Assembly: GCA_963666515.2 (NCBI GenBank)
Contig: OY762897.2
Location: 896,001 to 960,000 of the forward strand
DNA: 64,000 nt
Origin: Candidatus Binatia bacterium
Lineage (GTDB): Bacteria; Desulfobacterota; Binatia; UBA9968; JAJDTQ01
Direction of reading: 5' to 3'
Shown piece after piece: positions 148-53,417 of the stretch. Positions within the stretch are counted from its first letter, which is position 1. Each line of letters opens with the position of its first letter. Made by a program: the position numbers and the translations under genes. The notes below the pieces were generated by a model, which saw only the letters and a list, made by a program, of their open reading frames with translations, was not told the origin of the DNA and did not search any database.

Positions 148-1067
148 CGGTTGAGCCTCCTCGTTCGTTCCATGAGCCCCTTCAGGCCTTCGAGCCTGGC
201 GCCGGCCTCGAGCTTCTCGATCGCGCCGTCCTGCTGAGCCACTTCGGCGTAGAGCTTCATGGCGGACCGGGCGAACCCGTCGAAGGTCTCGATGTCGAAG
301 TCGAGGCCCTGCGGGTCGTTCCGAAGAGCGTACTCCCTGGCCAAGCTCACGTAGTAGTCGCCGAAGTCCAGCAGGTAGCGGTGGTAGTTCCTGCTGCGCA
401 CGTGTCGCGACAGGAGCTGGCTGTAGCCGAGCGCCACCAGTTCGTTGCCCTGGTTCAGCCGATGGCGGTTCAGCTCCACGAACGCCACCTTGGCGCGGTC
501 GATGGCCTCCGCTTCCACCCGCGCCAGGTATTCCAGCGAAGTTCCCTCGTGTTCCCGGACCAACGCGTTCCAGGCCAGGACCACGTCGTCCAGGACTTTC
601 ATGTACTCGAACGGGTCCTCTTTGGGAAGGGCCGTGCGGGAAATTCGTCGAAACGTCTCCAGCGCTTCGACCCGGCGTTGCGCCGGGTCCGCCAGCTCGC
701 CGCCGCCGCGCGTCACGTTGCGGTAGTGGCGGATGGCCCGGCCGTAGTCCCGGAGACGCTCGTAGGCGGCGGCCCGGGTGAACTCCACGATGTCGTTGTA
801 GCCGCTTCCGTGCCTGCGCTGGTAGTCCTCCAGGCGCAGCAGCGTGGCCTTCAGGATGTTGGTGCCGGTCACGTCCTTGGGGACGTCGAACCGGTAGACG
901 TCCTCGCGCGAGAGCCTTTGGAACTCGTTGATGATTTCCAGCAGGTTCGCCGGTTGCACGTAGCGCGGGTCGGGCGCTTCCGTGCGCGTGCACCCGGCGG
1001 CGCCGAGAAGCAGCAGCGCCCACAGCCAGATCGCGGCTACCGTTTTGTGGTGATGAGCGAATAGCAC
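144..1067 (-). CDS. Putative lipoprotein, helical/TPR-like
   Basis: Hydrophobic stretch plus lipobox-like LLLGAAGC, followed by helical repeats (AAAYERLRDYGRAIRHY). GTG start at 1067 is inferred; the longer ORF overlaps the cupin gene. Confidence 0.65.
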   Translation of the reverse strand: MLFAHHHKTVAAIWLWALLLLGAAGCTRTEAPDPRYVQPANLLEIINEFQRLSREDVYRFDVPKDVTGTNILKATLLRLEDYQRRHGSGYNDIVEFTRAAAYERLRDYGRAIRHYRNVTRGGGELADPAQRRVEALETFRRISRTALPKEDPFEYMKVLDDVVLAWNALVREHEGTSLEYLARVEAEAIDRAKVAFVELNRHRLNQGNELVALGYSQLLSRHVRSRNYHRYLLDFGDYYVSLAREYALRNDPQGLDFDIETFDGFARSAMKLYAEVAQQDGAIEKLEAGARLEGLKGLMERTRRLNR

Positions 1068-1393
1068 AGGACCAGCTCGCCCTCTTCGGCCGCGAAGTCG
1101 TGGGGGACGCCCCTGGGAATGTGGCAGAGCATGCCGGGGCCGAGCCGGGTGACCTCTCCGGCGGCGCGCAGCCGGCCCCGCCCCCGCAGCACGTGGCAGA
1201 CCACGTCCTTGTCGTCGTGGACGATCTGTCTGGGGTCGGCGGCGGCGGTGGCGCTGAACGAAACCAGGCCGACGTTGAAGCCGTCGCCTTCGATGCATCC
1301 CTTGTGGCGGATCTCCGAGTTGATCTCGGCCAGCTCCGCCAGGGCTTCGTCGACGTTCACGATCGTTGGACCGGACGGTGCATCGCTGGACAC
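1037..1393 (-). CDS. Cupin domain protein
   Basis: Cupin motifs VHDDKDVVCHVLRGRG and GPGMLCHIPRGVPHDF. GTG start follows a GGAGG. Confidence 0.85.
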   Translation of the reverse strand: MSSDAPSGPTIVNVDEALAELAEINSEIRHKGCIEGDGFNVGLVSFSATAAADPRQIVHDDKDVVCHVLRGRGRLRAAGEVTRLGPGMLCHIPRGVPHDFAAEEGELVLCYSLITTKR

Positions 1394-1422
1394 GGCAACC
1401 CTCTGCTTCCTCCGGCCGCGGC

Positions 1423-2361
1423 CTACGCCGCCGGTTCCGAGATGTGGCGCAGGATCGCGTCGACCGCTCGCCCGGCTTCGCCGTCCGGCACCCTGCACGA
1501 CCCCACCACCCGGTGGCCGCCGCCGCCGTAGCGGCTCAGCAGGTCGCCGACGTTGACCGTGGAGGTGGTGTTGAAGATGTTGTACCCCACCGAGATGGCG
1601 GTGGTGCGGGCGCGCTGCGGGTCGCGGGAGATCTTCATGGAGATGTTCCCGTCCGGGAACAGCGTATAGAGCAGGAACCGGTTGGCGTCGGTCAGGTCTT
1701 CGGTATCCCGCAGATCGAGGTAGATGACGTTTCCCCGCAACTCGGCGCGCTCCAGCAGTTGCCGCCGCAGCCGTTCCTGGAGGCTCAGGACGCGGTCGCA
1801 GCGCGCGCGTACCTCCGGGTCGTCCAGGACCTCGTCCAGGGTGCGGTCGCGAACGAGGTCGATGAGGCGGCGCCAGTAGGGCTCCTCGGCGCTTTCCTTG
1901 CCGTAGATGGTCATGGAGACCAGCACGTAGCCCGCGGGATGGAGCACGTCGTCGCGGGTCAGGGTGCCGCCGTCGATCTTGTCGGTGTCCCGCAGCAGCT
2001 CGGTCACGCGGCCGGTGCGCATCATGCCCAGGCCCGACTCGTAGCGCGGCGAGCCGCCGGGCACTTGGGTATAGTACTCGTACACCACCCGGGCCGCGCT
2101 CGGCGCCATGCGGAAGGCGCCGCGCCCGGCCACCACCGGGCGGTCGAAGCCGGCGGCGCCGTTGGTGAAGTGGTGGTCGAACCACAGCGTGCAGGCCGGA
2201 TGATAGGGGAGGTTGGCGATGATGTCGCCCTCGCGTATGTCCACGGCGCCGTCCTGCATGAACTTGGGCTCCACGAACAGGTAGGAGTCGATGTCCTCCA
2301 GCGCGGTGATGAGGGCGCCGCAGACGATGCCGTCGAAGTCGGGTCGCGTGACCAGCCTCAT
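1423..2361 (-). CDS. DHH-family phosphoesterase (NanoRNase/exopolyphosphatase-like)
   Basis: MRLVTRPDFDG, WFDHH and C-terminal GGGGH motifs. ATGA overlap with the ald stop. Confidence 0.85.
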   Translation of the reverse strand: MRLVTRPDFDGIVCGALITALEDIDSYLFVEPKFMQDGAVDIREGDIIANLPYHPACTLWFDHHFTNGAAGFDRPVVAGRGAFRMAPSAARVVYEYYTQVPGGSPRYESGLGMMRTGRVTELLRDTDKIDGGTLTRDDVLHPAGYVLVSMTIYGKESAEEPYWRRLIDLVRDRTLDEVLDDPEVRARCDRVLSLQERLRRQLLERAELRGNVIYLDLRDTEDLTDANRFLLYTLFPDGNISMKISRDPQRARTTAISVGYNIFNTTSTVNVGDLLSRYGGGGHRVVGSCRVPDGEAGRAVDAILRHISEPAA

Positions 2362-3476
2362 GCGCAGAGGACCTCGTCCACCGGCTTGAGCGGCACCTGC
2401 AACGCGCTGGCGACGCCGGCGTGGGTCACCCGCCCGTCGTGGACGTTGAGCCCCCGCGCCAGCGCCCGGTTCTCCTGCATGGCGCGCCGGAGCCCGTTGT
2501 CGGCGATGGCGAGGCCGTAGGACAGCGTGGCGTTGGTCAGGGCGTAGGTGGCGGTGTGGGGCACCAGCGCCGGCATGTTGGTGACGCAGTAGTGCACCAC
2601 CCGCTCCTCGACGTAGACGGGGTCGCGGTGGGTGGTGGGCCGGGAGGTCTCGGCGAAGCCCCCCTGGTCGATGGAGACGTCGACGATGGCGGCGCCCCGC
2701 TTCATCCGTCTGACGCGGTCCCTCCCCAGCAGCATGGGGGTCCGGTCCCCGGTAATGAGCACGGAGCCGATCAGCAGGTCCGCGCCGACGATCTCCTCCT
2801 CCAGGTTGGCCTGGTTGGACATGAGGGTGGTCAGCCGCCCGCCGAGGATGTCGTGGATGTAGCGCAGCCGGGCGGGGTTCACGTCCAGCACGCTCACGTC
2901 GGCGCCCATGCCGGCGGCGACCTGGCATGCCGAGGCCCCCACGCTCCCCGCTCCCAGCACCACCACCTTCCCCGGCCGGACCCCGGAGGCGCCGCCCAGC
3001 AGCACCCCCCGGCCGCCGTTCTCCGATTGCAGGCACCAAGCCCCCACCTGGAGCGACAGCCGCCCGGCGATCTCGCTCATGGGCGTCAGGAGCGGCAGGG
3101 AGCCGTCGTCGAACGCGATGGTCTCGTAGCCGACCGCGGTGACGCCCGTCTGGCACAGCGTCGTGGCCAGCTCCGGCAGCGCCGCGAGGTGGAGATAGGT
3201 GAAGAGCGTCAAGTCCGGCCTCAGGTGGCCGAACTCCTCGGGCACCGGCTCCTTGACCTTCATGACCAGGTCGGACCGGCTCCAGACCTCTCCGGCGCGG
3301 TCCACCACCGTGGCGCCGGTGGCCGTGTAGGCCCGGTTGGGGATGTGGCTGCCGCGGCCGGCGTTGCGTTCCACCAGCACCTGGTGGCCGTGGGCGATGA
3401 AGGCCGCGGCTCCCGCGGGCGTTAGCGCGACCCTGTTTTCCTCGATTTTCAACTCTTTGGGCACGCCTACGACCAT
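2358..3476 (-). CDS. ald: Alanine dehydrogenase
   Basis: GVPKELKIEENRVALTP, FTYLHLA, LLTPMSEIAGR, DVSIDQGG, HYCVTNMP. Confidence 0.95.
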   Translation of the reverse strand: MVVGVPKELKIEENRVALTPAGAAAFIAHGHQVLVERNAGRGSHIPNRAYTATGATVVDRAGEVWSRSDLVMKVKEPVPEEFGHLRPDLTLFTYLHLAALPELATTLCQTGVTAVGYETIAFDDGSLPLLTPMSEIAGRLSLQVGAWCLQSENGGRGVLLGGASGVRPGKVVVLGAGSVGASACQVAAGMGADVSVLDVNPARLRYIHDILGGRLTTLMSNQANLEEEIVGADLLIGSVLITGDRTPMLLGRDRVRRMKRGAAIVDVSIDQGGFAETSRPTTHRDPVYVEERVVHYCVTNMPALVPHTATYALTNATLSYGLAIADNGLRRAMQENRALARGLNVHDGRVTHAGVASALQVPLKPVDEVLCA

Positions 3477-3608
3477 GGATTCATTGGTACGTGAGCGCCC
3501 ATGGAGTGTCAAGAAGGCCCCGGCGGCTCGATGACCTCGCAACTTCATTGACCTTGCAACCCCGGCGTGTTAACCGGAAATTTGACACCCTGACGGGAGC
3601 GCAACACG

Positions 3609-4454
3609 ATGATCATAGACGGCAAGGCGGTGGCGAAGCAGGTGCGCGACGAGGTGCGGGAGGAGACGGAGCGGCTGCGGAACGCTCACGGCGTCGTCCC
3701 CGGTCTCGGCGTGGTGCTGGTGGGGGACGACCCCGCCTCCCGCATCTACGTGCGGAACAAGGAGAAGGCGTGCGCCGAGGTGGGCATCCGCTCGGTGGAG
3801 CACCTGCTCCCGGCCTCCGTGACCCAGCACGAGCTGCTCGACCTGATCGGCCGTCTCAACGAGGATCCGGCCATACACGGCATTCTTGTCCAGTTGCCCC
3901 TGCCCGAACACATCGCCGCCGGCCGCATTCTGGAGGCGGTCTCTCCGCGCAAGGACGTGGACGGCTTTCACCCGGTCAACCAGGGGCTGCTGCTCTCCGG
4001 CGGCGCCGGTTTCAGGCCCTGCACGCCCCTGGGGATCATGAGGATGCTGGATTCCGTGGGCTGCGAGTTGAAGGGCAAGAACGCGGTCGTGGTGGGCCGC
4101 AGCAACATCGTCGGCAAGCCCGTGGCCCTCATGCTGCTGGAGCGCCACGCCACCGTGACCCTGTGCCATTCGCGGACCGCGGACCTGGCCGCGGAGGTGG
4201 GCCGCGCGGACGTGGTGGTGGCCGCGGTGGGCAAGGCCCACGCCATTCGCGGCGAGTGGATCAAGCCCGGCGCGGTAGTCATCGACGTCGGCATCAACCG
4301 GCTGTCCACCGGCAAGCTGGTGGGCGACGTGGAGTTCGAGCCGGCCCGGGAGCGCGCGTCATGGATCTCGCCGGTGCCGGGGGGCGTCGGACCCATGACT
4401 ATCTGCATGCTGCTGTCCAACACCCTGCTGTCGGCGCAACGATCTCTGGAATAG
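3609..4454 (+). CDS. folD: Methylenetetrahydrofolate dehydrogenase/cyclohydrolase
   Basis: [46 protein letters not shown]. Confidence 0.97.
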
Positions 4455-46263: not shown

Positions 46264-46488
46264 TCAGAGGGTGGACTTCCTGAAGTAGTCCGCTTCGTGT
46301 TTGAGCACGGCCTTTACTTGCCACTCCTGCACACCGGGGAACCACTCCAGGAATTCCTTTACCGTGGCGCCACCTTCCAGGTTTTCAAACAGGGCATACA
46401 CCGGCACTCTCGTTCCGGTGAAGGCCCACGCTCCGCTGATCTTGCGCGGGTCGCGTTCCACTGCCGGGCACGTTTCCCAATCCGTCAT
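46264..46488 (-). CDS. DUF433 antitoxin-like protein (orphan)
   Basis: P.KISGAW.F.GTRVPV..LFENL..GATV.EFLEWFP. Confidence 0.85.
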   Translation of the reverse strand: MTDWETCPAVERDPRKISGAWAFTGTRVPVYALFENLEGGATVKEFLEWFPGVQEWQVKAVLKHEADYFRKSTL

Positions 46489-46556
46489 TTCGGATTCCTC
46501 CGTTCGGATTCCAGCGTTATCCTCGACTGGCAGGCGTGGCTTCCGGGACCGGGCGC

Positions 46557-46778
46557 TTATGCCCGGCCCCCCGTGCGTTCAATCAAGACCCGGAGCGCTT
46601 CGGCCTGTTGGTCCAGGCGCGCCATGGCTTCGGCGTGGCGGGCATCTTCGCTGGCGGCCCGTTGGTCTCCGGCGTGGCGCATTTGCCGAATGCCTACGAA
46701 GATGGCGGCGACGACCCCGAGGCTGGCCCCGGCCTGAACCGCACTGATGATGAGAGTTGCGAGTTCGTACCCGGTCAT
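46557..46778 (-). CDS. Small single-pass membrane hypothetical protein
   Basis: GGAG RBS, then MTGYELATLIISAVQAGASLGVVAAIFVGIRQM and a coiled-coil tail. Confidence 0.55.
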   Translation of the reverse strand: MTGYELATLIISAVQAGASLGVVAAIFVGIRQMRHAGDQRAASEDARHAEAMARLDQQAEALRVLIERTGGRA

Positions 46779-46885
46779 TCTCCGTCTCCGTTCCGGCGAG
46801 GAAGAATCGGAAGCGGCAGGCACGGGCAAGCGACCCGGAGTCGACCGTGCCCATGTTCGTCTCCATGACGACATGCTACCCGGAA

Positions 46886-47209
46886 TCAGTGGGCTAGTAC
46901 AGAACGAGCGTGGTCGTCCAGCCTTTCAGCGATCCGCTGTGCCAAACCAACGGTCAGTCGCGTGCCGGTCGCTTCCGCGTAGCGGCGCAAGGTAGTCAAG
47001 GACGGTGACACGCCACCGCCCTCCAGCCGCGCGATGGTGGATTAGGTCGTTCTGAGGCGCCGGGCGAGTTCTGCCTGTGTCAACTTCGCGGCTCTACGGG
47101 CATGAATCAATGCCTCGATCAGCCTGAACTCGTCATCGGCCCGCGCGTACTCTTCCCGGAATTCCAGATCTTCCATAAAGCGCTTCTTCAGGTCCTTCAG
47201 TCTCGTCAT
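46886..47209 (-). pseudogene. XRE/HTH antitoxin with internal nonsense codon
   Basis: MTRLKDLKKRFMEDLEFREEYARAD...LTQAELARRLRTT*STIARLEGGGVSPSLTTLRRYAEATG. The TAA at 47042-47044 replaces the expected Gln. Confidence 0.8.
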
Positions 47210-47292
47210 GGCGTCACCTGCTTCATGCGTTCCCTGGCGGTCGCGAGCGCTCGGGGCGGCGCCCTCCGCGACTTCGTCGCTTTAACGCCCAT
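47206..47292 (-). pseudogene. C-terminal remnant of a Gp49/RelE-like toxin
   Basis: ATKSRRAPPRALATARERMKQVTP* overlaps the antitoxin start; the N-terminal part is absent. Confidence 0.6.
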
Positions 47293-47391
47293 GGTTGCAG
47301 GTGTTATATATGTGGCTTCCCAAGGTGCGTTGCAAGCGGCTTGACCGCGAGGTCGCCAACTCATCGCAGGGAAGAAGGACGGAGGCATCAA

Positions 47392-47604
47392 ATGGACCGA
47401 ATCGCCGTTGATCCAAGAATTCACTTCGGTAAACCATGCGTCGCCGGCACGCGTATTGCGGTGCAGGATGTCCTGGAACTCGTTGACGAGGACATCCCCT
47501 TCAACCAGATCATTCGCGACTACTATCCCGACATGACCGTCGAAGATATCCATGCGTGTATTCGCTACGCGATCGCCCTGGTGGGCGCCGAGGATTATCA
47601 CTGA
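47392..47604 (+). CDS. DUF433 antitoxin-like protein (orphan)
   Basis: DPRIHFGKPCVAGTRIAV..VLE...YPD..VEDI.ACIRYA. GGAGG RBS. Confidence 0.88.
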   Translation: MDRIAVDPRIHFGKPCVAGTRIAVQDVLELVDEDIPFNQIIRDYYPDMTVEDIHACIRYAIALVGAEDYH

Positions 47605-47613
47605 GAGGTAGAC

Positions 47614-47961
47614 ATGGAACCGGTGCACGGCTTCCGAATGAAGAGCCCCGTCCATCCCGGCGAGTTCGTCAAATGCGAAATCATCGAGGCTCTCGATCTG
47701 ACGGTGACTGGGGCGGCGAAGGCGCTCGGCGTCACGCGGGCGGCGCTGTCCGCCGTTCTGAACGAGCGCGCGCGCTTGTCGCCGGAGATGGCGTTGCGGA
47801 TCGAGAAGGCCTTCGGCGTGTCGATGGACACCCTCATGCGTATGCAGAACAGCTACGACATCGCCAAGACCCGCGGGCGGGCGGGCGAGATTGAGGTTGC
47901 ACAATTCGAGAGACAGTCACGCGGCAACAAGCCTCGTGTGGCCCTCCATACCGAAAGGTGA
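47614..47961 (+). CDS. higA: HigA-family antitoxin (orphan)
   Basis: PVHPGEF...AAKALGVTRAALS.VLN..A.LSPEMALRIEKAFG...MQNSYD. Confidence 0.88.
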   Translation: MEPVHGFRMKSPVHPGEFVKCEIIEALDLTVTGAAKALGVTRAALSAVLNERARLSPEMALRIEKAFGVSMDTLMRMQNSYDIAKTRGRAGEIEVAQFERQSRGNKPRVALHTER

Positions 47962-48035
47962 AACCCGCCCCGCCGCCAAGACGCTGCACCGCCTAGCGAG
48001 GCTTCGCCTCAGACCGACGAGGGGGTAAGGGGATT

Positions 48036-48139
48036 GGCTCCGGTCGCTTGTAGCAGGGATTGAATCCCTGGTCATGGGACCTTGCAAGGTCGGACCTCAA
48101 AGGGTCAAATGGGCATAAAAGCCCGAAGCAACCGGAGCC
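48036..48139 (+). ncRNA. Multi-branched structured leader (RNA or ssDNA)
   Basis: A 13/14-bp outer stem encloses four hairpins and sequesters the GGAG RBS. Confidence 0.6.
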
Positions 48140-48143
48140 GGAC

Positions 48144-49751
48144 ATGAGCCTACCACAAACCGTAGCGGAAGTATTGCGCGATCACGTGACGCTGGAATAC
48201 GAGTCGGTGGATCGCCTGTACTTGAACCTGTATGTGCCGCAGTTGCAGAGCGTGGGCGGGGTAGTGGGGTATCTGCACAAGCACCATGGCCAGCGGTTTG
48301 CGTCGACGGTGGCGCTGGCGCCCAAGAGTCGGGAGTTCGTGCAGGCGGTGAAGGACTTTGCGGAGCGGGAGCAGATCGAGGTGGTGCACTTCAAGAAGGG
48401 CCAGCGCAAGGACGAGGTGACGCAGGAGTACCTGGGGCGGTTCAAGGGAACCGAAGGGGTTTTGTACATCGGGATAGCGCAGGAGAAGGCCCGTGTGATG
48501 CGCACCGAGCGGCGCCGGAACCCGGACACCGGGGTCACCTATCCGTGGGTGGTCTCGTCTACCGCGATGGTCAACCATGTGTATTTCTATTGCGTGGACA
48601 AACAGGCGGGGCCGTTCTTCATCAAGTTCTGCACCTACTTCCCGTACAACGGCAAGCTGTGCCTCAACGGCAACGAGTACGCCAAGTGCCAGTTGCGCGA
48701 GCGCGGCATCCCGTTCGAGGCTTTGGACAACGGCGTGCGCTGCTGCGGAGACCCCGAGGCGCTGCAACAGATCTGCGAAGGCTTCGATGCCGCTTTCATC
48801 GACAGACTGGCGCGCAAGTGGTTCGATCGCCTGCCGCATCCGTATACGCCTCAGGACCGTCGCGCCGGTCTGCGCTACGACATCTCCATCCTGCAAGCGG
48901 AGTTCAGCCTGACCCAGGTGCTCGACCGCCCGGCCTCGGGCCGCGTCTTTTTCGAGGACGTGATCCGCGAGAACCTCGATCTCGGTCGCCCCAGCCAGGT
49001 GCAGTTGATCTTCCAGCGCCGGGTCACCCGGCGCACCCCCGGTCGGTTCCGTACCCGGGTCATCACCGCAGGCGTCACCCCTTCCTTGCACGTGGACTAC
49101 AAGCACTCGCGCATCAAGCAGTACCACAAGGAAGGGCAGGCGCTGCGCACCGAGACCACCGTCAACGACACCTATGACTTCGCCCTGGGCCGGCGGCTGT
49201 CTAACCTGGCGGCGTTGTGCCAGGTCGGCTTCACAGCCAACCGTCGTCTGTTGCAGATAGAAACCATCAGCCACGACTGTGCCCTGGGTGAAGACGAACT
49301 CCAACGCCATCAACGCGGCCTGGAGTTCCACGGACAACGCGCCTCGGCCCTGCGCTTCGCCGATGAGCGCGTGCAGGCTCTGATGCAGGCCCTGCTCTTG
49401 TTCACTCTTTCGGCCCGCGGCTTCTCCAACCGCGACCTGCGCGGGCACCTCGGTGCACTCCTGGGCCTCGATCCCAGTCCAATGCGCCCGGGCCGAATGA
49501 GTTACGACCTGAGACGCCTGCGCCTGCACGGCCTGATCGAGCGCATCCCCGGCGCCTACCGCTACCACTTGACCGAACACGGCCTCAAGGTGGCGATGTT
49601 CTACACGCGTGTCTACAACCGCATCCTTCGCCCCGGCCTGGCCCATCTTGCGCCCGACGCCGTGAGCGGCAATACCAAGACCCATCGGCGCTTTGCCGCC
49701 ATCACCAGGAACCTCGATGCCATTTGCGATGAGGCGAAGCTCGTCGCTTAA
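48144..49751 (+). CDS. Uncharacterised 535-aa protein with Rep_trans-like core and C-terminal winged helix (putative transposase/replicase)
   Basis: SRIKQYHKEGQALRTETTVND resembles Y-x-K...R-x-E; MSYDLRRLRLHGLIERIPGAYRYHLT resembles a wHTH. Confidence 0.7.
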   Translation: MSLPQTVAEVLRDHVTLEYESVDRLYLNLYVPQLQSVGGVVGYLHKHHGQRFASTVALAPKSREFVQAVKDFAEREQIEVVHFKKGQRKDEVTQEYLGRFKGTEGVLYIGIAQEKARVMRTERRRNPDTGVTYPWVVSSTAMVNHVYFYCVDKQAGPFFIKFCTYFPYNGKLCLNGNEYAKCQLRERGIPFEALDNGVRCCGDPEALQQICEGFDAAFIDRLARKWFDRLPHPYTPQDRRAGLRYDISILQAEFSLTQVLDRPASGRVFFEDVIRENLDLGRPSQVQLIFQRRVTRRTPGRFRTRVITAGVTPSLHVDYKHSRIKQYHKEGQALRTETTVNDTYDFALGRRLSNLAALCQVGFTANRRLLQIETISHDCALGEDELQRHQRGLEFHGQRASALRFADERVQALMQALLLFTLSARGFSNRDLRGHLGALLGLDPSPMRPGRMSYDLRRLRLHGLIERIPGAYRYHLTEHGLKVAMFYTRVYNRILRPGLAHLAPDAVSGNTKTHRRFAAITRNLDAICDEAKLVA

Positions 49752-49859
49752 ACTACCGAGCGTTACAACTCGCGATGGCCTACGATAGTATTCATGTACG
49801 AACGAAGTCCAGTTCAAATATCTTGTCTTCCTGAGTCAAGATCCTGTCGATCAAGGATT

Positions 49860-51329
49860 CTAGTCGGCCGCCGCCAGCAGCCGGTCGATGTCCAGGGCCT
49901 CTTCGAAGGCGTCGGCCACGGCGTCCAAGGCTTCTTCCACGCCGGCTTCGTAGGCCGGACCGAATGCACCGTCAACGCCCATGGAACGGAGGAACTCGCG
50001 GCGGAAGGCGTCGCCGGCCAGGAGCCCGTGGACGTAGCAGCCCATGACCCTTCCGTCCGCGGACACGCTCCCGGGATCGTGTCCCTCGCCCTCGGGCACG
50101 AGGAACGGCCGGGAGGCGTCGCCGCCGGTGCTCTTGCCGACGTGCATCTCGTAGCCGGCAAAGGCCGCGTCCACGGTCGCGCCGGCTCCCGCCACCTGTC
50201 TGAGCGTCTTGGCGCCGGTGAGCACGGTCTCGTGTTCCAGGAAGCCAAGCCCCGGTTCCTCGCCGGCCAGCCCCTCGATGCCTTGCGGGTCCGCCACCCT
50301 TCGGCCGAGCATCTGGTATCCGGCGCAGATGCCCAGCACGGCGCCGCCCCGGCGCCGGTGGGCGAGTAGGTCGATGTCCCATCCCTCGCGCCTGAAGGCC
50401 CGCAGATCGGAAAGGGTGGCCTTGGAGCCCGGCAGGATGACCAGGTCGGCATCGCCCGGGAGCGGGCGGCCGGGCGCCACCATGTCCACGGTCACCGCGG
50501 GTTCGGCTAGCAGAGGATCGAAGTCGTCGAAGTTGGCGATGTGCGGCAGCCGCGGAACCGCGACGCGGAAGGCTCCGTTGCCGGCCCGCGCCGGCCGGTT
50601 GTCGAGTGAGAAGGCATCCTCCTGCGGCAGGCGCAGCGCGGCGGGGAGATAGGGGATGACGCCGAAGGACGGCAGGCCGGTGCGCGCGGTGATGATGCCG
50701 AGCCCGTCAGCGAACAGGTCCGCATCACCGCGGAACCGGTTGATCAGGTACCCTTGCAGCAGCGTGCGCTCGTCGTCCGGCAGCAGCTCCCAGGTGCCCG
50801 TCAGGTTGGCGATGACGCCGCCCCGGTCGATGTCCGCCACCAGCACCACCGGTACTTGCGCAGCGGCGGCAAATCCCATGTTGGCGATGTCATGGGCGCG
50901 CAGGTTGACCTCGGCGGCGCTGCCCGCGCCCTCCACCAGCACGAAGTCCGCCGCGGACCTCAGCCGCTCGAAGCTCTCCAGGACCACGGGCATCAGCTCC
51001 CGCTTCACTTCCTGGAAGTCCTGCGCGTCGTGGTTGCCGCGCACCTTGCCGCGGACCACCACCTGGGCGCCCACGTCGGACTGCGGCTTGAGCAGCACCG
51101 GGTTCATGTCCACCGAGGGTGGGACCCCGCAGGCCCTGGCCTGCAGCGCCTGGGCTCGTCCGATCTCGCCGCCGTCGGGCGTGACGGCGGCATTGTTGGA
51201 CATGTTCTGCGGCTTGAACGGCCGCACCGTGTGGCCGCGGCGGGCCAGCAGGCGGCAGAGCCCGGCGGTCACCAGCGACTTGCCGGCGTCCGAGGCCGTT
51301 CCCTGGAACATGATCGTCCTGGCTCGCAT
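49860..51329 (-). CDS. cobQ: Cobyric acid synthase
   Basis: [49 protein letters not shown]. Confidence 0.96.
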
Positions 51330-51937: not shown

Positions 51938-52157
51938 TGGCGCACCGCCCGGATCCAACGGCGGGGTGCAGGCGGACGGCGAGTTGCGTTGCAATCGAAC
52001 ATGTGGAGCGCATCCTACAACGCGGGATGGACAAAGAGAAATACGCGATCTCGGAACGGCAGGGCACGGATCCGCACGGAATGCTTCCCGCCACGGCGGG
52101 AATCCAGGTTGACACCCACACGCCGTTTCCGTATTGCTGAATCCCATGGAGGACGCC

Positions 52158-52466
52158 ATGCGAAGCACCCATGACATGGGCGGGGACCCCCATGCCGGAC
52201 CCATCGACCGCTCACAGCACCAGTTGGACGACTGGGAGATTCTCGCCGACGCCCTGAACCAGGTGGTGGGGGTCAAGGGCATCAAGCGCACCGACGAGAC
52301 CCGGCGGGCGCGCGAGGAGATGGACTCGGAGGCGTACCTCTCGCTCAGCTACTACGAGCGCTGGATCGCCAGCCTGGAGACGATCCTGGTGGAGAAGGGC
52401 TTCATGACCCGTGACGAGATCGACCGGAAGGTGGCGGAACTGGAAGAGAAGTGGGGCGAGCCGTGA
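52158..52466 (+). CDS. Nitrile hydratase beta N-terminal domain / thiocyanate hydrolase beta-like subunit
   Basis: HDMGG, WE, DETRRARE, SYYERW, LVEKG. Confidence 0.85.
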   Translation: MRSTHDMGGDPHAGPIDRSQHQLDDWEILADALNQVVGVKGIKRTDETRRAREEMDSEAYLSLSYYERWIASLETILVEKGFMTRDEIDRKVAELEEKWGEP

Positions 52467-52768
52467 GCGGTGACGCGGGTTTCACGGACGGCCAGGCGGT
52501 GCGGGTGAAGTCGCACTTCAAGCCGGGCCACGTGCGCACGCCGTTCTACATCAAGGGCAAGACGGGGTGGGTGGAGCGCTGCTACGGCGAGTTCCGCAAC
52601 CCGGAGTCCCTGGGACACGGCGGCGACGGCCTGCCTCGGGTCCGGCTGTACCTCGTCGGCTTTCACCAGAAGGACGTGTGGGACGGCTACGGCGCCGCCG
52701 GCAGGGACAAGGTTTTCGTGGACATCTTCGAGCACTGGCTGGAGCCCGCCGCGGAAGCGGGCGCATGA
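52463..52768 (+). CDS. Nitrile hydratase beta C-terminal SH3 domain / thiocyanate hydrolase alpha-like subunit
   Basis: GHVRTPFYIKGKTG.V...NPE...LY.V.F...W...VDIFEHWLEP. GTGA overlap with the upstream gene. Confidence 0.85.
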   Translation: MSGDAGFTDGQAVRVKSHFKPGHVRTPFYIKGKTGWVERCYGEFRNPESLGHGGDGLPRVRLYLVGFHQKDVWDGYGAAGRDKVFVDIFEHWLEPAAEAGA

Positions 52769-52784
52769 AACGCGGGAGGGAAGC

Positions 52785-53417
52785 ATGGCGCACGAGCACG
52801 GTCCGGGAGAAGAGCACGAGGCGGGCCCCAGGCACGAGCTGAGCCACTGGGCCAAGCGGGCGTACGCCATACGCGACATCCTCATCGAGAAGGGCGTGCT
52901 GACCGAGGAGGACGTCCGGCAGCAGGCGGAGTTGACCGAGTCCAAGACGCCGGCCAACGGCGCCCGGCTCGTGGCCCGGGCCTGGACCGACCCCGAGTTC
53001 AAGGCGCGCCTCGTGGCCGATCCCAAGAAGGTGTGCGCCGAGATGGGCATCGACGCCACCACCCTGAACGAGTTCGTGATCCTGGAGAACACCGAAGGCG
53101 TGCGCCACATGGTGGTGTGCACCCTGTGTTCGTGCTACCCGCGTCCGATCCTCGGCCGGCCGCCGGACTGGTACAAGAGCTTCAACTACCGCAAGCGCGC
53201 GGTGAACGACCCCCGTGGCGTCATGCGCGAGTTCGGCCTGGAGTTGCCCGACGGCGTGGAGGTGCGGGTGCACGACAGCACCGCGGACATGCGCTACCTG
53301 GTGATCCCGGTCCGCCCCGCGGGCACCGAGGGCTTGAGCGTCGAAGAGCTGGAGAAGCTGGTGACCCGCGACAGCATGATCGGGGTGATGGACGCGTTGC
53401 CCTCCGTTCCGGAATGA
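52785..53417 (+). CDS. Co-type nitrile hydratase alpha / thiocyanate hydrolase gamma-like subunit
   Basis: GARLVARAWTDPEFK, metal-binding VCTLCSCY, DSTADMRYLV.P.RP. Confidence 0.93.
   Translation: MAHEHGPGEEHEAGPRHELSHWAKRAYAIRDILIEKGVLTEEDVRQQAELTESKTPANGARLVARAWTDPEFKARLVADPKKVCAEMGIDATTLNEFVILENTEGVRHMVVCTLCSCYPRPILGRPPDWYKSFNYRKRAVNDPRGVMREFGLELPDGVEVRVHDSTADMRYLVIPVRPAGTEGLSVEELEKLVTRDSMIGVMDALPSVPE

Follow-up and report, generated by a model that had tools for sequence, protein, structure and literature searches.

Insertion sequences (ISs) are classed by the chemistry of their transposases, which are DDE or DEDD enzymes, HUH nucleases of the Y1 and Y2 types, serine or tyrosine recombinases or, in casposons, Cas1. 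A 1871-bp unit holding a single gene was analyzed in a 64,000-nucleotide stretch of DNA (the window) from Candidatus Binatia bacterium (assembly GCA_963666515.2, contig OY762897.2, positions 896,001 to 960,000), where it spans positions 47993-49863. Its product probably is a transposase of another kind, a tyrosine nuclease with a predicted TATA-binding protein (TBP) fold that resembles the Rep_trans replication initiators and carries a winged helix. The unit as a whole we take, with similar confidence, to be an active and autonomous IS of a widespread unclassified family, whose enzyme would combine a TBP-fold nuclease of the Rep_trans kind with a MarR-like winged helix and move the element by a nick-and-join or rolling-circle route.

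The Rep_trans/MOB_T enzymes include RepD and RepC of the pT181-type plasmids, RepSTK1 (PDB 4CIJ), RstA of CTXphi and NicK of an integrative and conjugative element (ICE). According to PMC13107129 they are known from plasmids, filamentous phages and conjugative transposons. PMC4797284 locates Y191, the nucleophile of RepD, on strand 10 between R189 and K193, with R212 and E214 on the neighboring strand 11. D46, D142 and E214, which lie on three different strands of the TBP-like sheet, coordinate the metal. Rep_trans enzymes have a metal site of three carboxylates on separate strands, about 5 Å from the Tyr, and nick DNA at specific sequences, forming a covalent 5'-phosphotyrosine link. The protein encoded by the present element would share with these enzymes the curved TBP-like catalytic sheet and, by comparison with PMC4797284, a Tyr between basic residues, R-x-E on the next strand and carboxylates on other strands. 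In both cases a DNA-binding domain follows the catalytic domain and hairpins occur in the DNA sites. Differences are that the catalytic domain comprises about 380 residues here versus about 200, with large insertions in its first half, and that the element is a multi-copy chromosomal IS, not a plasmid, phage or ICE.

A second group of interest is Rep-Arvir of archaeal viruses and plasmids (DUF7845, PF25227), described in 2026. In PMC13107129, these proteins consist of an N-terminal domain whose TBP fold emerges only from structure comparison, followed by a MarR-like winged helix and a C-terminal region; Y283, E25 and E303 are essential, the Rep also gave a match to A0A2N9QVX7, and DUF7845 is said to occur in archaea only, in connection with viruses, plasmids and ICEs. 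The predicted architecture of our protein has the same three parts and shares A0A2N9QVX7 as a Foldseek neighbor, and E25, Y283 and E303 of Rep-Arvir parallel D23, Y327 and E337 here. Unlike Rep-Arvir, the present family is bacterial and shows IS behavior, being a single-gene unit that is multi-copy on chromosomes and also borne on plasmids. The protein had no DUF7845 match at E ≤ 1 in a Pfam-A library that probably includes PF25227 (it contains PF25213 and PF25242).

Among described transposons, the IS200/IS605 elements likewise lack terminal inverted repeats. They have different subterminal hairpins at the two ends, insert without duplication 3' of a fixed short sequence that also ends the element and use a single catalytic Tyr, features that the present element may share. 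Their enzymes have an HUH fold resembling an RNA recognition motif, whereas a TBP-like fold is predicted for our protein, which is not matched by Y1_Tnp, exceeds theirs in length about 3.5-fold and includes a winged helix. IS91/ISCR elements and Helitrons (HUH Y2) are comparable in that they have a tetranucleotide target, no inverted repeats, a Rep-like nuclease and, close to the 3' end, a hairpin or box. However, the element described here is not HUH, has only one conserved catalytic-site Tyr and no helicase domain, and clear one-ended transposition products were not found for it; its likeness to the CTRR terminus of Helitrons, drawn in an original prediction made from the window's sequence, is a loose analogy. 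The preference for the rare CTAG is shared with the DDE elements IS5, IS701 and IS630 (CTAG, YTAR or TA targets), but these have terminal inverted repeats and RNase-H-fold DDE transposases, neither of which is present here.

Copies, mobility and spread of the family

The exact unit occurs nine times at 100% identity in the 4.66-Mb chromosome, with CTAG at both borders and unrelated flanks every time. CTAG is found 1197 times in this genome, against 14,762 expected from base composition, and is the rarest permutation of its four letters. In Logan contigs from three public runs, which may derive from the assembly's own sample and thus are possibly not independent, the depth of the unit is 7-9 times that of its flanks, and several different loose contig ends start at 47990-47992 and at 49863-49865. 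The protein was not detected in any of 27 congeneric species. In a phylum-wide sample it turned up in 18 of 400 other genomes, in several of these as fragments or with stop codons. Nine identical copies, the absence from congeners and the sparse presence in the phylum indicate a recent acquisition followed by a burst of transposition.

The multi-copy behavior with identical ends that the original prediction had anticipated is also seen elsewhere. Eight metagenome-assembled genomes (MAGs) contain 2-8 copies each, always with different flanks, and the copies within a MAG are 99.5-100% identical in seven of them and 96% identical in one. The homologs thus are multi-copy and non-syntenic rather than single-copy and syntenic. 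We are almost certain that the unit is a real and recently active insertion sequence.

Searches for an unoccupied site were made at several loci. A paralogous empty site was not found in this genome. For a congener empty site at cobQ, the cobQ side aligns and the sequence upstream of cobQ is not conserved; the cobQ stop region reads CTAG in two of the four alignable congener loci and CTAC in the other two (7 of 11 loci gave no probe match). The flanks of four other copies had no bridging match in the five closest genomes: two flank pairs were without any match, and the matches of the other two were confined to other repeats or to a single side. Every model is compatible with an empty site that reads CTAG, which therefore does not discriminate between them; it cannot separate target duplication from nick-and-join. 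In the contigs of the three runs neither a circle junction nor an empty-site joint was seen. One X3 contig appeared to join 47993 to 49866 but was rejected as a junction: it has eight foreign letters between the two positions and only 25 letters on one side, and was taken to represent another locus.

Three further observations concern the chromosome. A decayed, internally deleted relic of a related element is present at C1:2645461-2645643, consisting of two adjacent pieces of about 92 bp with 90-92% identity to window positions 48080-48172 and 48499-48591; its internal deletion also appears, as a joint skipping 327, in contigs of the three runs. Copy 6 and a palindromic repeat of ~95 nt are 5 nt apart; the repeat resembles repetitive extragenic palindromes or miniature inverted-repeat transposable elements and is found at C1:1652918-1653017 and in dozens of places (e.g. 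4557539-4557639 and 3600994-3601091). The GC skew has its minimum, the putative origin, at about 3.7-3.8 Mb and its maximum at about 1.4 Mb, and beside the minimum the cumulative skew jumps by about 1.2 units within 200 kb at C1 ~3.8-4.0 Mb.

The family is large. All 8000 scored candidates of a 90%-identity collection match the protein, and the best 120 matches are 64-96% identical, have no Pfam domain and are named only 'hypothetical protein'; most of these 120 lie on contigs of 1.7-3 kb, like collapsed repeats. When 50%-identity representatives were searched with a profile, 14,112 proteins passed E ≤ 1e-3, of which 1999 also reached E ≤ 1e-30. Confirmation was obtained for 584 of 591 candidate stretches in GTDB species genomes, and 79 loci with 57-75% identity were kept, which belong to Beta-, Alpha- and Gammaproteobacteria, Acidobacteriota, Planctomycetota, Chloroflexota, Actinomycetota, Gemmatimonadota, Verrucomicrobiota and Binatia. 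Relatives were also found on 28 plasmid records of Rhodococcus, Burkholderia, Paraburkholderia, Caballeronia, Mycobacterium and Bradyrhizobium. The sources name the relatives only 'hypothetical', 'uncharacterized' or, for one plasmid and one metagenome relative, 'ArsR regulator', and the literature searched yielded no description of the family, its end motifs or a Rep_trans-like transposase. It is very likely that this is an abundant family not classified by current models, where unclassified is meant with respect to the Pfam, NCBIfam, PHROG and PADLOC models. The proposed position outside the standard IS families agrees with the fact that the protein matched no model of a classified IS family.

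In an Isosphaeraceae MAG three copies (L040, L062 and L064, at ~830-4153) share a 3.3-kb unit, unlike copy L039 of the same MAG. In these three another IS sits exactly at the CTA/A left junction (here and below a slash marks the point of cleavage or joining). This second IS has inverted repeats GTTCTACAGCCGCAG, is bordered by TA at each end and contains, on the minus strand, a frameshifted transposase-like open reading frame (ORF). Either it struck the same site three times or a composite moved as a whole.

The distribution of the copies also bears on the possibility that the unit is a minimal integrated rolling-circle replicon, plasmid- or satellite-like, which is integrated site-specifically at CTAG by its Rep protein and has no dedicated transposition cycle. 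The closest architectures, Rep_trans and Rep-Arvir, do initiate replication of plasmids, phages and archaeal viruses (PMC4797284, PMC13107129), and hairpins occur near both ends of the unit. Nevertheless, such a replicon is improbable in view of the integration of the unit in every long contig that bears it, its 2-9 copies per genome and the many 1.7-3 kb contigs, which fit collapsed repeats (circularity aside). Moreover, the non-coding part of the element is only about 260 nt, mostly translational leader, and no junction contig was seen.

Ends, target site and leader

Across phyla the left end consists of CTA in the flank, A or G, C, the hairpin GAGGC-TYC-GCCTC and then AGACCGACGAG. The hairpin is kept in all 34 aligned sequences, and one of its pairs is A-U in 31 and G-C in three, both sides having changed. 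The 61 distinct left junctions collected from other genomes read CTAA (48), CTAG (7), CCAG (4), ACAG (1) and TTAG (1). In the family-wide pattern the left CTA belongs to the flank or target, and the fourth base of the tetranucleotide, G here and A in most relatives, probably is the first base of the element. The right end has AAACTTGACNCA just past the stop codon and terminates in NCAAGG-N3-5-CTAG; 44 of 51 distinct right-end regions fit CTTGA...[TCA]AAG...YTAG. Its CTTG and CAAG tetramers could pair, and no covariation is observed. The right non-coding end is longer in the window than in relatives, where it usually measures 45-50 nt. The hairpin that the original prediction saw here (49820-49842) is present as an inverted repeat, but it is a lineage variant of the box pair that lacks covariation, and the right-end DNA of the window folds no better than shuffled sequences (z +0.68).

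As predicted, terminal inverted repeats are absent: beyond CTAG the two ends are not inverted repeats of each other, and they differ both in sequence and in structure. The claim of conserved CTAG at both ends needs qualification. Ends of the form CTA(R) and CTAG extend across phyla, down to 41% identity in a Mycobacterium riyadhense relative that keeps CTAG, a GAGGC-CA-GCCTC hairpin and a right end reading ...TCCTAG, and a copy on a Caballeronia plasmid also has canonical ends. However, the left tetranucleotide mostly is CTAA, as counted above, and only CTA is common to both ends. Copy L039 of the Isosphaeraceae MAG (~4100-4126) terminates 26 nt early at an internal CTA, followed by G, a single case that fits termination defined by the nick site.

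The target was derived from 55 distinct insertions, 46 in other genomes and nine in this one, that have CTA on the left and a recognizable right end; the set excludes the CCAG, ACAG and TTAG junctions as well as copies whose right ends are truncated. The consensus AAWWW-CTAG-Y is asymmetric, and the element always faces it in the same direction. The A/T share is 67-78% at the five positions preceding CTA and 25-51% at the 12 that follow CTAG, and in 43 of the 55 sites a pyrimidine comes directly after CTAG. A symmetric double-strand cut at the palindrome would not predict such an oriented, asymmetric target.

This is relevant for a mechanism in which the same element is moved by metal-dependent hydrolysis and strand transfer on double-stranded DNA, following a DDE-like logic in a new fold, with staggered cuts at C/TA/G that duplicate TA (or CTA or CTAG) as in IS5, IS701 and IS630. 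The CTAG target is palindromic and every junction can be written as C-TA-[element]-TA-G; since the same junctions can be read as a TA, CTA or CTAG duplication, a double-strand mechanism is compatible with the sequence. However, the flanks of the palindrome are strongly asymmetric with constant orientation to the element, terminal inverted repeats are lacking and the ends are unlike in sequence and structure. On the side of the protein, six acidic residues are invariant or nearly so (D23, E114, D152, E253, E337 and D345) and sequence-level links to Rep_trans were not found, both of which would suit hydrolysis. The absence of an RNase-H-like fold and of a match to a DDE family would not, nor would the invariant Tyr in a K-x-Y-x-K / R-x-E setting on adjacent strands. 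Altogether we consider hydrolytic transposition unlikely.

The left non-coding region contains a structured leader, which is found in relatives from several phyla. In the window it folds with a minimum free energy (MFE) of -68.4 kcal/mol (z -3.42, 0 of 200 shuffles as good), and four of the six pairs of its long helix show compensatory changes. The 3' arm of the helix contains a GGAG (48134-48137) at a distance of 6 nt from the ATG. In 33 of 34 MFE folds the GGAG, located 6-9 nt before the start codon, pairs with a CUCC further upstream, and in the 34th sequence AGAGG is paired with CCUCU. Rfam gave nothing near gathering scores for the leader. The most economical reading is that the leader serves translational repression, as in other ISs.

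IS110-type elements, too, have a conserved structure with covariation, about 100 nt long, on their left non-coding side, and the structured 5' region could act in RNA-guided recombination as a guide that pairs with target and donor, like the bridge or seek RNAs of IS110/IS1111. We regard this as very improbable. The loops of the hairpins vary strongly from one subfamily to another with the target constant at AAWWW-CTAG-Y, which argues against a guide role, the long helix that sequesters GGAG before the start codon fits translational control, and the protein has no DEDD or RuvC-like domain.

Predicted fold, candidate catalytic residues and mechanism

The protein belongs to no Pfam, NCBIfam, PHROG or PADLOC family apart from weak winged-helix matches at residues ~427-472, and winged-helix Pfam matches are found in up to 16 of 84 family members. 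No Pfam or NCBIfam transposase model matches, in line with the original prediction, which recognized no DDE, HUH or recombinase motif. Sequence-profile searches of the PDB gave nothing significant, the best match being an iron-dependent repressor over the winged helix (E 0.011), and the ESM Atlas returned only clusters of hypothetical proteins plus one cluster with HTH_5 in 12% of its members. An AlphaFold2 model built from 84 homologs (21-79% identity) reached a predicted local distance difference test score (pLDDT) of 88.4 and a predicted template modeling score of 0.77. It replaced a first model from 26 close homologs (pLDDT 59, residues 249-379 below 50), of which Foldseek matched the winged helix only. 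Three domains are predicted: a duplicated TBP-like domain from residue 1 to ~380, in which the order S1-H-S2-S3-S4-S5-H occurs twice (residues 15-186 and 246-377), a MarR-like winged helix at ~405-477 and two long C-terminal helices at 478-530.

In a Foldseek search of the PDB, chains B, D, A and C of 4CIJ occupy ranks 2-5 with probabilities of 0.99, 0.97, 0.97 and 0.72 and E values of 2.0e-3 to 7.2e-3. Judged from the model, this Rep_trans rolling-circle initiator, RepSTK1, is the best functional match in the PDB. Archaeal and plant TBPs follow with probabilities up to 0.85 (1mp9_B, 0.85), and the C-terminus matches MarR- and DtxR-type repressors (MarR family 0.91-0.96). In BFVD, giant-virus TBPs were found at probability 0.99, including A0A2N9QVX7, as well as several unnamed proteins at 0.98-1.00. 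No transposase or integrase structure and no RNase-H-like fold was among the Foldseek matches. The Rep_trans fold that had been predicted for the protein thus agrees with a confident model, with 4CIJ and with other TBP-fold proteins, but not with tests of membership at the sequence level, which fail (see below).

The sequence-level matches are confined to winged-helix families and, as mentioned, two relatives are annotated as ArsR regulators. This raises the question whether the ORF encodes only a DNA-binding regulator of the ArsR/MarR kind and the unit is mobilized in trans by another enzyme. It is hard to reconcile with this view that copies from different phyla have nothing in common but the ORF together with both ends, and that about 380 conserved residues lie outside the winged helix. 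Furthermore, the left-end motif is confined to the nine full copies in this genome, and hence there are no ORF-less derivatives. A mere regulator is scarcely credible.

Among the 84 sequences D23, E114, Y147, G156, P167, N175, N196, E253, F290, Y327, R335, D345 and Y454 are invariant, and R24, D152, K320, K329, E337 and N341 are among the residues conserved at 90% or more. K325 is invariant in a set of 23 sequences, and Y319, close to the proposed site, varies. The candidate catalytic Tyr of the original prediction, in the motif KQYHK, is Y327, and its choice is supported by its conservation and by its position next to a strand with the invariant R335 and the near-invariant E337, as in RepD. 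K325-x-Y327-x-K329 lies in a predicted strand at 322-329 and R335-x-E337 in the next at 333-340, and D23 and E253 each fall in the first predicted strand of their half, the first and the second, respectively. By strand order in the model, Y327, R335/E337, D23 and E253 would occupy positions equivalent to those of RepD. The spacing from the Tyr to R-x-E is 8 residues here versus 14 in the bona fide Rep_trans protein P0391 (R-I-Y-D-K, then R-F-E).

In view of these features we infer a nick-and-join or rolling-circle route, which could proceed as follows. The winged helix and the C-terminal helices would bring the protein, which probably acts as a dimer, to the two dissimilar ends. Tyr327 would nick one strand 3' of CTA at both ends (CTA/R), assisted by a divalent metal bound to carboxylates on separate strands, for which D23, E253 and E337 are candidates. 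The nick would yield a 5'-phosphotyrosine link, and subsequent strand transfer would reseal the donor as CTAG. The element may be released or copied as a single-stranded circle, comparable to the peel-and-paste cycle of IS200/IS605, or by rolling-circle displacement, as in IS91 and Helitrons. Through the same chemistry it would be inserted into CTA/G preceded by about five A/T-rich bases. A single nick specificity, CTA/R, would explain the dissimilar ends, the left hairpin, CTA at both boundaries, the purine that comes first in the element, the G that comes first in the right flank and the oriented target. Mobility, copy number, ends, target, fold class and conserved residues are grounded in the data; the chemistry, the strand used, the intermediate and the dimer are what we infer from them.

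Several findings weigh against this mechanism and against the nuclease assignment on which it builds. The junctions are equally compatible with a target duplication of 2, 3 or 4 bp (TA, CTA or CTAG). Five left junctions in two Acidobacteriaceae MAGs, reading ...ACAC(C)AG-CGAGGC, have no CTA and are not explained by the model; these copies (L076, L080, L091, L094 and L099, with left ends at ~2330-2390) still have right ends in TCTAG, and three of the five left flanks of this subfamily terminate in CACA. The single-stranded intermediate is a proposal, a circle junction is missing from the contigs, and the lagging-strand bias of IS200/IS605 is not seen in the nine copies of this genome, a sample too small to be informative, in which the coding strand is on the leading strand in six cases and on the lagging strand in three. 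Concerning the fold, no PDB match reached E ≤ 1e-3, rank 1 was taken by the unrelated dimethylglycine dehydrogenase (E 1.8e-3, probability 0.60), the template modeling score to 4CIJ is low (0.31-0.36 by target length) and TBP-fold proteins without nuclease activity score similarly. The apparent clustering of D23, E253, E337 and Y327 rests on strand order in the model, not on distances. At the sequence level, the PF02486 hidden Markov model had no match in the genome at E ≤ 10, no Rep_trans match was obtained for the protein at E ≤ 1 or for its 84 relatives at E ≤ 0.1, and hhalign of the 84-sequence family against 30 Rep_trans proteins gave a probability of 3%, or 0.1% for the second half-domains alone. 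Because these sequence tests fail, the claim is limited to a Rep_trans-like function and fold. The similarity to Rep_trans is structural only, and the protein is best described as one that works like these enzymes and probably shares their fold, not as a member.

Whether the widespread IS family of 'hypothetical proteins' is driven by a further class of prokaryotic transposase, a non-HUH tyrosine nuclease of the Rep_trans superfamily with TBP fold, a CTA/R nick and a single-stranded or rolling-circle intermediate, appears to us evenly balanced. If so, a type of enzyme not so far linked to transposition would drive at least 14,000 clusters at 50% identity in at least eight bacterial phyla, and a Rep_trans-like class would have to be added to the classification of ISs. 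As a transposing equivalent, in bacteria, of the archaeal Rep-Arvir initiators, the family would link these, through transposition as a third lifestyle, to the bacterial Rep_trans initiators. HUH and Rep_trans, which are unrelated folds of rolling-circle initiators, would each independently have given rise to transposons. The family is invisible to Pfam and NCBIfam and hence to standard annotation, so that its IS content, assembly breaks and gene disruptions are currently missed. Being compact, with one protein, short defined ends and a simple target of fixed orientation, the system lends itself to testing and could possibly be useful as a tool.

Coordinates and neighboring genes

The CTAG borders, the left hairpin and the single 535-residue ORF of the original prediction are all present in the window, and the proposed neighbors, a higA-like gene and cobQ, are borne out by their HTH_3 and GATase_3 matches. 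The cobQ stop codon does lie within the right CTAG, as was proposed. Positions are collected in Table 1.

Table 1. Positions of the element's features and of adjacent genes in the window (HTH, helix-turn-helix)
Feature	Position	Strand	Remarks
DUF433 gene	46264..46488	-	upstream of element
DUF433 gene	47341..47604	+	precedes the HTH gene
XRE/HigA-like HTH gene	47614..47961		upstream of element; HTH_3 E 2e-10
Left junction CTA/G	47993..47996	+	CTAG in all nine copies; 4th base G here
Left-end hairpin GAGGC-TTC-GCCTC	47998..48010	+	begins 2 nt inside the end; 5 pairs kept in 34/34
Left-end box AGACCGACGAG	48011..48021	+	columns 19-29 invariant or ≥90% conserved in 34 sequences from several phyla
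Structured leader	48036..48139	+	long-range helix GGCUCCGGUC...GACCGGAGCC closing 3-4 hairpins
Candidate transposase, 535 aa	48144..49751	+	predicted TBP-like repeat, winged helix, C-terminal helices
Codon of Tyr327, candidate nucleophile (K325-x-Y327-x-K329)	49122..49124	+	invariant in 84 sequences
Right non-coding end	49752..49863	+	contains ATCTTG...CAAGAT (49820-49842) and terminal box TCAAGGATTCTAG (49851-49863)
Right junction CTA/G	49860..49863	+	overlaps cobQ stop codon (CTA on +, TAG on -)
cobQ	49860..51329	-	downstream of element; GATase_3 E 6e-51; stop = CTA 49860-49862
Open frame antisense to transposase gene, 555 aa	48150..49817	-	

A TTG start at 48060 would lengthen the transposase ORF but is not supported, as the homologs have 535 residues and align from residue 1 (MSLPQ). 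The 555-residue antisense frame is a chance expectation in DNA of 66% G+C. Upstream of the element, the DUF433 genes and the XRE-type HTH gene at 46264-47961 form a small toxin-antitoxin-like or regulator cluster. Translations of the ORFs at 52134-53417 have motifs resembling those of the beta and alpha subunits of a nitrile hydratase-type enzyme, which they may encode.

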